DNA from: Candidatus Multivorans sp.
GTDB lineage: Bacteria; Acidobacteriota; Thermoanaerobaculia; Multivoradales; Multivoraceae
DNA length: 64,000 bases
Reading direction: 5' to 3'
Assembly: GCA_965247095.1 (NCBI GenBank)
Contig: OZ251997.1
Span: forward strand, 3,136,001 to 3,200,000
In this document: one piece after another, positions 19,927 through 24,448 of the stretch
Numbering within the stretch: the stretch's first letter is position 1
Layout of the letters: the number at the start of each line of letters is the position of its first letter
The notes under the pieces: model-generated
Seen by the model: only the letters and a program-made list of their open reading frames with translations
What the model was told of the DNA's origin: nothing
Databases searched by the model: none
Position numbers and translations under genes: made by a program

Positions 19927-20595
19927 CTAGGACAGCAGCCGGGCGGCCCGAGCGGTCAGGTCGTCGAGCCTGGCGCCGAGTTCGAGCCGGGCCGCCTCCC
20001 GCTCGGCGTCGGTCGATCCGCGATCGAGCACCATCGGTTCCCCGACCGCGACCGCCACCCTGGTGAACGGGGCGCCGACGATCATGCGGTCCCAGCTCCT
20101 CAACCTCAGACCGCGGTCCGCGGCGAGGCCGGCGGGGACGATCGGCGCGCCGGACATGGCCGCCAGCACGATGCTCCCGGCTTTCGGCCTGCGCGCCGGC
20201 CCGCGCGGACCGTCGGGCGTGAGCAACAGGGTCGACCGATGCTTGACGAGCTCGCGGTAGAGGGAGAGCACCGCCTCGCGGCCGCCGCGGGAGGTCGAGC
20301 CGCGGGTGACGCGGATGCCCCAGGCCCGCGCGACCCGAGCAGCCAACTCACCGTCGTCGGAGTGGCTGGAGAGGATGGAAACCGGTCCACCGGCCGGCAG
20401 CAGGCGCCGGCGCACCAGCAGCAGGGAGAGCGCCAACTGCTCGTGCCAGCAGGCGAGCATGGCCGGCGGCTCGAGCGCGCGGTCGAGGTGCTCGGCGCCT
20501 TCGAGGCGGTGCAGGCGGTAGCTGGCGGTGAGGGTCTGGGAGAGGAGACGGACCAGGACCGCCGCCGCGGGCAGGGCGGCGCCGCGTATCTTCAA
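19927..20595 (-). CDS. DUF374 / lysophospholipid acyltransferase family protein (LpxJ-like)
   Basis: ACWHEQL, SSHSDDGEL, RGSTSRGG, TPDGPRGP, SWDRMIV. Confidence 0.85.
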   Translation of the reverse strand: MKIRGAALPAAAVLVRLLSQTLTASYRLHRLEGAEHLDRALEPPAMLACWHEQLALSLLLVRRRLLPAGGPVSILSSHSDDGELAARVARAWGIRVTRGSTSRGGREAVLSLYRELVKHRSTLLLTPDGPRGPARRPKAGSIVLAAMSGAPIVPAGLAADRGLRLRSWDRMIVGAPFTRVAVAVGEPMVLDRGSTDAEREAARLELGARLDDLTARAARLLS

Positions 20596-20822
20596 CCGAT
20601 GCCGGCGGCGTAGTTGAGCACATCGCCGACGGTCTCCATGGCGGCGGCGTCTTCGTCGCTGATCTCGATGTCGAGGGCCTCTTCGAGTTCGATCAGCAGT
20701 TCGAGCTGCTTGGGAGAGTCGATGCCGAGGTCGGCCACGAGGTCGAACTCGGGCCGCAGCTCGCCTTCGTCCCGGCCGCTGGCCCGTGCCAGTACCTTGC
20801 TCGCCGCTGCACGTGGATCCAT
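20592..20822 (-). CDS. Acyl carrier protein
   Basis: 76 aa acidic protein; DLGIDSP phosphopantetheine site; SD GAGGAG. Confidence 0.9.
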   Translation of the reverse strand: MDPRAAASKVLARASGRDEGELRPEFDLVADLGIDSPKQLELLIELEEALDIEISDEDAAAMETVGDVLNYAAGIG

Positions 20823-20874
20823 TGCTCCTCAGCTCCTGTGCCCAACCGTGGCTGCCAAGTCCGGCGAGGCCGGG

Positions 20875-22563
20875 TCAGAAGTCGGCCGCTAGTTCGCCGC
20901 GAAGGTACTGCTCGCGGAGGGACCGCCGCCGGACCTTGCCGCTGGTGGTGCGCGGAATCCTACCCCGGCGCACCAGGAGCAGATCGGCGAGCTGGATGCC
21001 CAGGGCGCGGCCGACGCTGCGGCCGACTTCGCTCCGCAGCAGGGCGGTGCTGCCGCGGTCGCCGCCGGTCTCCATCACCAGGATCGCCCGCTCGCCGTGC
21101 GGCGCGTCGACCGAGAAGGCGGCGGCGCGCTCGCGACCGCCGGCGCCGAGAACGGACTCGGCCACCCACTCGATCTCGTGCGGCATCACGTTCGAGCCGC
21201 CCAGGATGAGCAGCTCCTTGGTGCGGCCGGTGATGTGGACCTCGCCGGCAGCGCTCAGGAAGCCGAGGTCGCCGGTGTAGAGCCAGCCGTCGCGCAGCAC
21301 CTCGGCGGTCGCTTCCGGGTCGTTCCAGTACCCCAGCATCAGGGAGGGCGACCGCAGCCGGATCTCGCCCACTTCGCCCGCCGGCAGCGGGCGCCCGTCG
21401 GGCGCCGCGATCTCGATATCGGTGCGGTCCATCGGCGGGCCGTTCGACGTCACCTCCGGTCCGCCGCCGGACGGCGCCGCGGTGTGCAGGCCGTCGACGG
21501 TCTGGCTGATCGAGATGAGCAGCGTGTTCTCGGCCATGCCGTAGGCGGCGCGCAGGGCGCCCGGATCGAGGCCCGCGGCCTCGAAACGGCGGCTGAACTC
21601 GTGCATCGTGTCGGCGCGCACCATCTCCGAGCCGCTGCACACGTCACGCCAGCCGCTCAGATCGAGCGATGCCAGGCGATCGTCGCCGACCCGTTCGACG
21701 CACTGCCGGAAGGAGAAGTTGGGGGCCGCCGACATCGCGGTCTTCGTGCGCTTGAACTGCTCCAGCCATACCCAGGGCCGCGCCAGGAAGGCGCGCGGGT
21801 TGAGCATGATCAGGTCGGCGCCGGTAAGCAGAGAGCCGAGCAGGCAGCCTCCCAACCCCATGTCGTGGTAGAGCGGCAACCAGCCGACGAGGGCATCCAT
21901 CAGTTGTCCGCCGCGCGGAATCGCCACCGCTTCCATGCTGGCGCGGGCGCTCCAGGTCGCAGCAAAGTGGCCCACGACCACGGCCCTTTGGTGACCGGTC
22001 GAGCCGCTGGTCATCTGCAGGAAGGCCGGATCGTCGCCCCGCGGCGGCCGGCCGGCCGGTACCGGCGACGGACTCGTCGCGGCCAGGGCGGACTGCGAGA
22101 GCAGATTGGGACGCGACCCTCCGGCGGGCCCGACCGAGGCGATCTCCTGGACCTGATCGCTGACCGGGTCGGTGCAGACCATGTAGCGGGCGTCGAGCAA
22201 CTCGTTCACCGCGAGCGCCTTCTCGATCTGATTGCGGGGCGAGCCGAGCGTCCGCGGGGGCGCGACCGCCGCCGGCAGAGCGCCGAGGCGAACGGCGCCG
22301 AACCAGACCTGGAACCAGGGCCAGGAGGTCGGCAGGCACACCAGGATGCGGTCGCCGGGGCGGACGCCGAGGGTGATGAGACGACCCGCGGCAGCCTCGA
22401 TCTCGTCCAGCAGGAAAGGCCACGTGCGCCGGCCCTCCACCCGGCCGCGGCTGTCGATCAGCGTGATGCCGCGCTGCGGCCAAACTGACGCCGCTCGTTG
22501 AAGCGCCTCCAGCAGGGTCTCGGGGTGGTGCTCGCGGTTCGTTGCTGCGCCTGGATCAACCAT
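20875..22563 (-). CDS. Fatty acyl-AMP ligase-like adenylating enzyme
   Basis: AFLQMTSGSTG, WLPLYHDMGL, APNF, YGMAE, TGDLG, IPRTTSGKVRR. Confidence 0.85.
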   Translation of the reverse strand: MVDPGAATNREHHPETLLEALQRAASVWPQRGITLIDSRGRVEGRRTWPFLLDEIEAAAGRLITLGVRPGDRILVCLPTSWPWFQVWFGAVRLGALPAAVAPPRTLGSPRNQIEKALAVNELLDARYMVCTDPVSDQVQEIASVGPAGGSRPNLLSQSALAATSPSPVPAGRPPRGDDPAFLQMTSGSTGHQRAVVVGHFAATWSARASMEAVAIPRGGQLMDALVGWLPLYHDMGLGGCLLGSLLTGADLIMLNPRAFLARPWVWLEQFKRTKTAMSAAPNFSFRQCVERVGDDRLASLDLSGWRDVCSGSEMVRADTMHEFSRRFEAAGLDPGALRAAYGMAENTLLISISQTVDGLHTAAPSGGGPEVTSNGPPMDRTDIEIAAPDGRPLPAGEVGEIRLRSPSLMLGYWNDPEATAEVLRDGWLYTGDLGFLSAAGEVHITGRTKELLILGGSNVMPHEIEWVAESVLGAGGRERAAAFSVDAPHGERAILVMETGGDRGSTALLRSEVGRSVGRALGIQLADLLLVRRGRIPRTTSGKVRRRSLREQYLRGELAADF

Positions 22564-24448
22564 GGAACTGCAGGTCGTAGAGGCGCCTGTAGGCGCCGCC
22601 CAACTCGAGCAGTTGTTCGTGGGTGCCCTCTTCGACCAGGACGCCGCGGTCGAGGACCGCGATGCGGTCGGCCCGCACCACGGTGGACAGCCGGTGGGCG
22701 ATGACGAGCGCGGTGCGGCCCTCCATCAGGTTGTAGATGGCGCGCTGCACCACGGCCTCGGACTCGGTGTCGAGATGGGAGGTCGCCTCGTCGAGGATCA
22801 GGATGGGGGCGTTCTTGAGCAGCGCCCTGGCGATCGCGAGTCTCTGACGCTGGCCGCCGGACAGGTTCTGGCCGCCCTCGCCGATCATCGTCTCGTAGTC
22901 GTCCGGCATCGCCATGATGAAGTCGTCGGCGTAGGCGGCGGCAGCCGCCAAGCGCACCTGCTCCAGGGGCAGATCGTCGCGCCCGTACGCGATGTTGTTC
23001 CGCACCGTGTCGTCGAACAGCACCGTCTCCTGGGTGACGATGCCGATCAGCGAGCGCAGGTTCGCAAGCGGCAGGTCGCGGATGTCCGTGTCGTCGATCA
23101 GCACCCGGCCCGAAACGGGATCGAAGAAGCGCGGCAGCAGGTTGACCATCGTCGACTTGCCGGCGCCGGAGGAGCCGACCAGGGCCAACATCTCTCCCCG
23201 ATTCAGATCGAGGTCGATACCGGACAGCACCGACTGGCCGTGGCCGGTCTTCCGGTAGCCGAAGGAGACATCTTCGAAGCGGATGCCGCGCTCGAATCCG
23301 GCGATCGGCGCAACGGTCGGCCGGTCGACGATGTCGCTCTCGATCTGCATCAGCCGGTGAACCCGCTGACCGCAGGCGACGGCCTCCTGCAACACCAGGT
23401 TCACCTTGTTCAACTTCCTGATCGGGTCGTACATGAACAAGAGCACGATCAGGAACTGAAAGAAGAGCGCGAAGGTGAGCCGCTCATCCCGGATCATGAG
23501 ACCCGCTGAGATGACCAGAGCCGCTACGATGATCGCCCCGATCGACTCGATCACCGGGCTCGAGACGGTAGACAGGAACTGGGCGCGGAGGTTGGCGAGC
23601 AGGTGGCCGTGGGTGGCGCGCTCGAACCGCCGGCACTCGAACTCCTCCATGCCGAACGCCTTGACCACACGGTTGCCGCGGATGCCCTCGGACAGGAGCC
23701 CGGAGAGATCGGCCATCCGCTCCTGGCTGCGGTAGGTGACCTTGCGCATCCCCCTGCCGAAGCGGGCCAGCAGGAAGCCGAAGATCGGCACCGCGATCAG
23801 CGAGATGAGGGCCATCTTGAAGTGGATCGTGAGCAGAACCACGCTGTAGACCAGCAGCAGCGCGCCGGACATGAAGATGTCGAACAGCCGCGCCGCGACC
23901 GCGTTCTGGAGCTTTGCGACATCGCTGACCACGCGGCTGTAGAGCTCGCCCGACGTGTGCCGCTGATGGAAGCGGCTCGACTGATGGATGATGTGGCGGT
24001 AGAGGTCGTTGCGGATGTCGGTCGTGAGCCCCAGGCCGGCGCGCTGGAAGGAGTAGCCGGAAAGGAACGCCATCAGGCTGCGCAGGAGCAGAACGAGCAC
24101 AAGCAGGATCGGCGTGAAGAAGACCTCGCGCCGGCCTTCGATGCCCGCCCACTGCTTGAGGTCGTCGTAGAGGTCCCCGGCCGCCGCTCTCAGGCCCTCC
24201 GTCCGGCCCTCTACGGAGTCGAACAGGCGCGCCACCGGCCCGTCGCTCCCGGTTTCGGGAAGGCCTCCCCCGCCGAAAACGTCTGGCGCCTCGTCCTCGG
24301 AAGCGCCCAGCACTTCCTGGAACATCGGATTGATCAGCCCGAGAAAGGCCACCGTGGCGATGCTGAAGACGACGATCGCGGCGAGGGCCAACAGCCCCCA
24401 GTGCACGTAGCGGCGGGCGTACCGGAGGAAGAAGGCGAGCAACTCCAT
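22556..24448 (-). CDS. MsbA-like ABC exporter (TMD-NBD fusion)
   Basis: Six-TM domain, [31 protein letters not shown]. Confidence 0.88.

Follow-up and report, generated by a model that had tools for sequence, protein, structure and literature searches.

The operon and its genes

In a 64,000-nucleotide stretch of the complete 4.62-Mb genome of an uncultured Candidatus Multivorans bacterium, class Thermoanaerobaculia, phylum Acidobacteriota (C1:3136001-3200000, here called the window, to which all coordinates without a prefix refer), four genes follow each other head to tail on the minus strand: an MsbA-like ATP-binding cassette (ABC) half-transporter, a fatty acyl-AMP ligase (FAAL), a small acyl carrier protein (ACP) and an acyltransferase of the DUF374 family, to which LpxJ belongs (Table 1). 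The ABC and FAAL genes overlap by 8 nucleotides (nt; 22556-22563), the ACP and DUF374 genes by 4 nt (20592-20595), and a spacer of 52 nt lies between FAAL and ACP. The four co-oriented genes with two overlapping junctions that had been described in a sequence-only reading of this DNA are borne out by the coordinates of the open reading frames (ORFs) and by their Pfam identities. We find it on balance probable, from the sequences and their conservation, that this msbA-FAAL-acp-lpxJ operon provides late lipid A acylation with a dedicated branch for its acyl donor.

Table 1. Genes of the operon, with lengths in amino acids (aa) where given and the supporting Pfam matches
Product	Position	Strand	Pfam match
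MsbA-like ABC half-transporter	22556-24448	minus	PF00664 ABC_membrane 152.6 bits; PF00005 ABC_tran 111.4 bits
FAAL-type fatty-acid adenylase, 562 aa, truncated FAAL-specific insertion	20875-22563	minus	PF00501 AMP-binding 175.8 bits
Dedicated ACP, 76 aa	20592-20822	minus	PF00550 PP-binding 34.1 bits
DUF374/LpxJ-type acyltransferase, 222 aa	19927-20595	minus	PF04028 72.8 bits (cut-off 26.8)

The acyltransferase is the only DUF374 match in the genome. LpxJ itself is a lipid A 3'-secondary acyltransferase, and the activity of the R. typhi enzyme is reported to be abolished by mutating W60, H61, D86, D132, W172 and D173; an HX4D/E motif is absent, and the characterised DUF374 enzymes are all lipid A late acyltransferases (PMC6148475). 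The counterparts in the window protein, matched by motif and spacing and not by alignment to R. typhi, are W50-H51, D80/D81 (SHSDDGE), D128 (TPDGPRG) and W168-D169. W50-H51 stand within CWHEQLAL, where the acidic residue at +5 is absent, so the protein likewise is without HX4D/E. Across 22 relatives, H51, D128, W168 and D169 never vary, and W50 and D81 show a conservation of at least 90%. An AlphaFold model of the protein (pLDDT 92.3, pTM 0.88) finds PlsC (5kym), LpxM (5kn7) and PatA (5f2z) as its top Foldseek matches in PDB, with probability 1.00 and TM 0.53-0.58. The Pfam family, the critical residues and the lysophospholipid acyltransferase (LPLAT) fold thus support the earlier suggestion of an LpxJ kind of enzyme. 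In the DUF374 tree, a clade of six copies (support 0.999), four of them adjacent to msbA and two without a recognised neighbour, contains none that lies beside a FAAL or ACP gene, and it excludes every FAAL/ACP-linked DUF374, the window copy included. Long DUF374 fusions and internal stops seen at L175, L067, L178 and L195 were rejected as artefacts of ORF extension; the proteins there are ordinary ones of 223-242 aa.

Judged from its sequence, the adenylase belongs to the FAAL clade, with a mere stump of the insertion that is specific to these enzymes. Among the NCBIfam models it scores highest against NF006624, fatty acyl-AMP ligase (333.6 bits), and five of its eight top models are named AMP-ligase, compared with 106.8 bits for the amino-acid adenylation model TIGR01733. 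The best matches in PDB are FAALs as well, namely the E. coli enzyme 3pbk (1.7e-61), 7r7f, which is the loading domain of a polyketide synthase (PKS), 3kxw, FadD23 and FadD32. Six FAAL or AMP-ligase chains are found among the ten best (E 1.7e-61 to 8.6e-45), and the fatty acyl-CoA ligase (FACL) FadD13 scores 5.7e-30. The FAAL-specific insertion normally comprises about 20 residues after a YGxAE motif. Compared with 3pbk, the stretch after YGMAE in the window protein has gaps of 11, 3 and 3 residues and is 17 residues shorter. As aligned it is 79 residues long; six FACL-like paralogues from this genome have 68-73 residues there, and seven orthologues have 80-87. The residual insertion amounts to roughly 6-11 residues relative to the FACL-like paralogues, and the short insertion, already given as a caveat before, is therefore real.

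The ACP carries DSP instead of DSL at the phosphopantetheine serine and differs in alignment from the housekeeping ACP at C1:4117057. Genome-wide there are three PP-binding domains, all of them small stand-alone ACPs, and a single phosphopantetheinyl transferase (PPTase). No PKS or nonribosomal peptide synthetase (NRPS) gene is found in the 64-kb window and, since the only three carrier domains of the genome are small ACPs, the FAAL has no PKS/NRPS client. Both the dedicated ACP, as one of three and unlike the housekeeping one, and the PKS-independent route that had been proposed agree with this.

The ABC protein has the architecture of a half-transporter, with an exporter domain of six transmembrane segments and a nucleotide-binding domain, and among the 54 matches of the genome to the MsbA model TIGR02203 it ranks first, the next one reaching 447 bits. 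A DUF374 gene is its neighbour in the window, and also in four other families of the order. In a further family its counterpart adjoins Wzy_C genes, and the window ABC is the best match to that protein in its own genome. The genome makes lipopolysaccharide (LPS), as it encodes LpxC, WaaA with LpxK immediately after it, and a pair of PF03279 (LpxL-family) acyltransferases. One of these LpxL-family genes belongs to a second module with a private ACP on the minus strand at C1:2408663-2411978 (L210:7663-10978), together with a FabG-like short-chain dehydrogenase/reductase (SDR), a FabF-like ketosynthase (KS) and an 84-aa ACP; the other (C1:1947430-1948353) has no ACP nearby. As the same genome holds this second SDR-KS-ACP-LpxL-type module, the lineage makes a habit of private ACPs for its late acyltransferases.

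All four ORFs of the operon have a GC content at third codon positions (GC3) of 0.81-0.92, a GC3-rich coding signature in a window with an overall GC of about 0.65-0.74. The ABC frame is open to a TTG at 24475 (22556-24475), and because the alignments of its relatives begin at residue 10, the ATG at 24448 is the likely start. A scan of 17000-25500 gave no promoter-like site and one terminator-like site, within the downstream 854-aa gene, and neither result is informative on the limits of the operon. Two metatranscriptome runs contain only 0.15-0.16 of the sampled words, and the assembled contigs are short pieces from a relative, 90-99% alike. One such contig of 263 nt covers the larger part of the ACP gene and the spacer between ACP and FAAL, and reaches 29 nt into FAAL, which is below the 31-letter rule for bridging and could be carry-over of DNA.

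Conservation outside the genus

In a class sample of 401 genomes, with orthologues defined by E <= 6e-103 and 40-100% identity, the FAAL occurs in 57 genomes, 19 of the 33 in the genus and 38 of the 368 outside it. The 39 orthologous loci outside the genus (in 38 genomes) were screened by tblastn, with Pfam checks on examples, and an ACP lies beside the FAAL in 35 of them. The neighbour of the pair is DUF374 at 15 loci and a PF03279 LpxL-family acyltransferase at four; at 13 it is an O-antigen-ligase-like Wzy_C gene, with an MsbA-like ABC alongside in 12 cases. An ABC gene alone is found at one locus, and nothing was recognised at six, two of which end at contig ends. Further neighbours in the 39 loci are an AurF-like di-iron oxygenase (11), a B12 radical-SAM enzyme (3) and a P450 (1). 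DUF374 matches are few, one to three per searched genome.

Among 401 genomes sampled from the phylum, just two outside the class have an orthologue, one in the order FAAL-ACP-DUF374 (L216) and one as FAAL-ACP followed by an LpxL-type gene (L215). When one genome per species was scanned with a FAAL alignment, the best 80 of at least 600 stretches, which are not a census, held five with FAAL-ACP-DUF374, all at a FAAL identity of at least 43%, and the other 75 were ordinary FAALs at 29-40%. The FAAL-ACP pair thus recurs beside two families of lipid A-type late acyltransferases, and also beside genes like those of O-antigen ligases and MsbA exporters. It is this company, two families of late acyltransferases together with MsbA- and WaaL-like genes, that most strongly suggests lipid A or LPS as the destination of the FAAL-ACP product.

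Some single loci should be mentioned in this connection. A B12-binding radical-SAM/DUF4070 protein directly adjoins ACP-DUF374 in L049 (8933-10540), L195 and L205. A 777-aa ORF at L187:10637-12970, near FAAL-ACP and a radical-SAM/SPASM gene, matches both AurF-like di-iron oxygenase and Wzy_C domains, which might reflect a fusion or the joint reading of two genes. In another genus of the same family (G314, L171:610-3151) the order is ABC-FAAL-DUF374; the FAAL and DUF374 matches are only 142 nt apart and no ACP turned up at this locus, so the carrier is either encoded elsewhere or missing. One ORF of Ca. Entotheonella (L097:5530-8466) combines PP-binding, a FAAL-like AMP-binding domain (34% identity to that of the window) and a PlsC-type PF01553 domain in an Aas-like design. 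A second, paralogous FAAL-like group in the class sample, with about 34-40% identity and frames often of 618 aa, is widespread in Thermoanaerobaculia and has no counterpart in the genome of the window.

Presence and loss within the genus

In a first sample of 24 congeners, FAAL-ACP lies directly upstream of DUF374 in 11, and the ABC gene abuts DUF374 in 12. One FAAL-minus genome of this sample (G014) has an IS110-family transposase between msbA and DUF374 (L060:8714-9823). A second sample gave a FAAL in 18 of 32 congeners, or 19 of 33 when the window is counted. The order FAAL-ACP-DUF374 is kept in all 19 of these FAAL-plus loci, and in 18 the ABC gene is seen within the flank, immediately upstream of the FAAL. 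In the four FAAL-minus genomes that were checked no orthologue was found elsewhere, the best matches being at 33% identity.

A tree of ABC and DUF374 from 35 loci (L150 was dropped, as it has no ABC match) places the 13 FAAL-minus loci in one clade, with a support of 0.961, nested among FAAL-plus lineages. The simplest history starts from an ancestor with the four-gene operon, from which FAAL-ACP was cleanly deleted once. Since this single deletion left msbA abutting DUF374, the acyltransferase survives, and presumably works, without its private donor, and as the loss clade keeps DUF374 without FAAL-ACP, the enzyme can apparently use another donor, probably housekeeping acyl-ACP.

A proposed acyl-donor branch and its alternatives

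If the operon serves late lipid A acylation, the FAAL-type enzyme would adenylate a free fatty acid and transfer the acyl group to the private 76-aa ACP, at the phosphopantetheine arm that the only PPTase of the genome would have attached. The LpxJ-type acyltransferase could then move the chain from this ACP to a lipid A precursor, at the lipid IVA or Kdo2-lipid IVA stage, on the inner face of the inner membrane, and the co-encoded MsbA-like exporter would flip the finished molecule. Lipid A, and not another envelope lipid, is the acceptor that we infer. In such a scheme the private branch would determine the identity of the acyl chain, and a chain would be installed in either case. More tentatively, and with an expectation that stays a little short of even, we propose that FAAL-ACP is a portable lipid A acyl-donor cassette, which plugs into an LpxJ- or LpxL-type acyltransferase, travels with MsbA and O-antigen-ligase-like genes and often with a tailoring enzyme of its own (a di-iron oxygenase, a P450 or a B12 radical-SAM enzyme), so that free or exogenous, modified fatty acids may enter lipid A outside the pool of type II fatty acid synthesis (FAS II). 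The loss clade would then amount to a natural knock-out, whose LpxJ, the same enzyme, would have to make do with housekeeping acyl-ACP.

Several observations weigh against this picture. The two LpxL-family enzymes of the genome could already provide both of the usual secondary acyl chains. The ABC protein scores 495.4 bits against TIGR02203, below the equivalog cut-off of 602, so that its earlier description as msbA-like holds for the domains and for its rank as the best MsbA candidate of the genome, but not for the score. The adenylase is closest to FAAL models and structures, which answers the question of FAAL versus FACL, but it falls under the cut-off of 600 for NF006624 and under those of the other FAAL models, and with its truncated insertion the ligation of CoA is possible. 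The scores of the ACP against the NCBIfam ACP models are likewise all below their cut-offs. At L049 the module is set amid glycosyltransferases (GT2 and GT1) and a Wzx-like flippase, between the FAAL and the radical-SAM enzyme, which also fits another glycolipid. Because related genomes are not independent, there were fewer independent events than the neighbour counts suggest. Finally, 14 of the 32 congeners are without FAAL-ACP and have retained msbA-DUF374 alone, and the acyltransferase is therefore not strictly dependent on the private ACP. These 14 genomes touch one of the refutation points that had been named in advance, the equal use of housekeeping ACP. The earlier idea that a free fatty acid is put on lipid A or another glycolipid before flipping is supported by the recurrence of FAAL-ACP beside lipid A-type acyltransferases, and weakened by an inferred acceptor, the truncated insertion and the low MsbA score.

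The same chemistry could also end on a different acceptor, with FAAL, ACP and DUF374 re-acylating or decorating a lysophospholipid (an Aas/LplT-like repair), an aminolipid, a surface glycolipid or a polysaccharide, and with the ABC protein moving that lipid. E. coli Aas offers a model, being an acyltransferase joined to an acyl-ACP synthetase, and its gene lies beside the transporter gene lplT. The general LPLAT fold of DUF374, with PlsC as the top Foldseek match and LpxM and PatA equal in score, would suit such a role, and so would the PlsC-type domain of the Ca. Entotheonella fusion, the setting of the L049 module and the two LpxL-family enzymes already in the genome. We nevertheless regard a different acceptor as rather unlikely, although it is the alternative to be taken most seriously, as FAAL-ACP, where it has another partner, stands beside PF03279 lipid A acyltransferases or beside Wzy_C genes that come with MsbA-like ABCs, and the ABC protein of the window is the best MsbA candidate of its genome. 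Moreover, the residues critical in LpxJ are present, and the characterised DUF374 enzymes all act late on lipid A (PMC6148475); for aminolipid synthesis, a review states that the use of FAAL or FACL is not established (PMC11631085).

It could further be argued that there is no functional coupling at all, and that FAAL-ACP is an inserted accessory pair for another pathway, with DUF374 using housekeeping acyl-ACP and the adenylase perhaps being an acyl-CoA or acyl-ACP synthetase for the recycling of fatty acids. The loss of the pair in one clade that kept msbA-DUF374, the six of 39 loci without a recognisable envelope neighbour, and the separation of FAAL and ACP-DUF374 on different contigs in G025 all agree with such an arrangement. 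We give it little credence in view of the 4-nt and 8-nt overlaps of ACP/DUF374 and ABC/FAAL, and because a late-acyltransferase gene, of which there are few per genome, accompanies FAAL-ACP at 19 of the 39 loci of other genera in the class and at both loci that come from outside it; the linked DUF374s also fall outside the unlinked clade B, the 0.999 clade of six copies. More improbable still is a decoration like that of AlmEFG, where the adenylase would act on a carboxylate that is not a fatty acid (an amino acid, a hydroxy acid or a dicarboxylate) and load it on the carrier, and DUF374 would then attach it to lipid A as an ester. V. cholerae AlmE-AlmF-AlmG follows the same logic of an adenylase, a private carrier and a lipid A-type transferase (PMC4278540), and the truncated insertion marks the window enzyme as atypical. 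The preference for NF006624 over TIGR01733 and the PDB matches to FAALs (1e-57 to 1e-61) point to a fatty substrate, however, and the AurF-like di-iron oxygenases at 11 of 39 loci, the P450 at one and the B12 radical-SAM enzymes at three fit the tailoring of an acyl chain.

Relation to known systems

The lipid A acyltransferase LpxJ of Helicobacter, Campylobacter, Wolinella and Rickettsia (PMC6148475) shares with the window protein the Pfam family, a WH motif with the proposed catalytic His, the conserved Asp residues, a WD motif, the lack of HX4D/E and the LPLAT fold. The window gene differs in that it overlaps the gene of a private ACP, follows a FAAL and lies outside the clade of FAAL/ACP-free DUF374s, and the available text of the LpxJ account mentions neither a private ACP nor an adenylase and does not contain the term 'acyl carrier' (PMC6148475). 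A dedicated ACP which feeds a dedicated late acyltransferase of lipid A is likewise found in the AcpXL/LpxXL system of rhizobia (PMC5613085). LpxXL there is reported to transfer ordinary C16/C18 chains when AcpXL is missing, in parallel to the retention of DUF374 after the loss of FAAL-ACP. In rhizobia, elongation enzymes of the FabF/FabZ type assemble the very-long chain while it is bound to AcpXL, and lpxXL is the transferase (PMC5613085), whereas the FAAL of the window is proposed to load a ready-made acid and the transferase is a DUF374 protein. The window operon has neither a KS nor a dehydratase by Pfam, which an AcpXL/LpxXL cluster would have, and the KS-SDR-ACP-LpxL-type module elsewhere in the genome (C1:2408663-2411978) is more AcpXL/LpxXL-like than the operon itself. 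The plan of AlmE-AlmF-AlmG is also the same: there an adenylating ligase is co-transcribed with a small carrier that is phosphopantetheinylated and with a transferase that modifies lipid A (PMC4278540). In a review figure, AlmG is put among the Lpx-type acyltransferases (PMC11631085). The substrate that AlmE loads is glycine, which gives a charge modification (PMC4278540), and in the window the ligase is FAAL-like and the transferase a DUF374 protein.

The FAALs of lipopeptide, polyketide and mycolate pathways are adenylases of the same clade that transfer acyl-AMP to a phosphopantetheine arm and not to CoA. FadD32, FadD28 and the PKS FAAL domains matched in PDB presumably do their carrier loading in these pathways. 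The client in the window is different, a stand-alone ACP and then an acyltransferase, in a genome without PKS/NRPS, and the insertion is much shorter. Aas/LplT is similar in having an acyl-ACP synthetase, an LPLAT-type acyltransferase and an adjoining gene for a membrane transporter. E. coli Aas is a single polypeptide with a PF01553 domain that uses the housekeeping ACP and repairs lysophosphatidylethanolamine, and the window has three separate genes instead, a DUF374 domain and a private ACP. The modification of lipid A by P. aeruginosa FadD4 was considered as a precedent and rejected, as FadD4 is an acyl-CoA synthetase without an ACP or acyltransferase partner (PMC8637051).

Full-text literature searches, with subscription journals and supplements outside their scope, turned up no paper connecting a FAAL with LpxJ or LpxL. 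The parts are ordinary, and the combination is a well-conserved and apparently undescribed variant of lipid A acylation with a dedicated ACP. The window contributes the linkage to msbA in one operon, a single loss within the genus as a natural knock-out, and the swap of partner between two families of acyltransferases. Textbooks derive the acyl chains of lipid A from FAS II acyl-ACP, and the exception they name is the AcpXL branch of rhizobia. A private ACP fed by a FAAL would, if true, be a second and different side entrance, through which scavenged or tailored fatty acids could reach the outer membrane, and stand-alone FAALs without a PKS/NRPS partner would gain a concrete client. It also bears on the diversification of lipid A in environmental phyla whose LPS is hardly studied, and two ready comparisons for testing the idea are at hand, congeners with and without the pair, and loci where its partner is an LpxJ-type or an LpxL-type enzyme.

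Surroundings of the operon

Upstream of the ABC gene, and divergent from it, lies ligA. Downstream of the operon there are genes for matrixin/fn3-like proteins, a GT1 glycosyltransferase and a radical-SAM/SPASM protein. The block occupies 10886-19786 on the minus strand, with three paralogues of 854, 429 and 536 aa that have weak matrixin and fn3 matches, then the GT1 and the radical-SAM/SPASM protein of 769 aa; it is also kept in one FAAL-minus congener and was not counted as part of the module. Elsewhere in the window we noted a di-adenylate cyclase module, the cdaA-ybbR-glmM operon at 29224-32110, and genes for DDE transposases at 526-1740 and 43443-44864.

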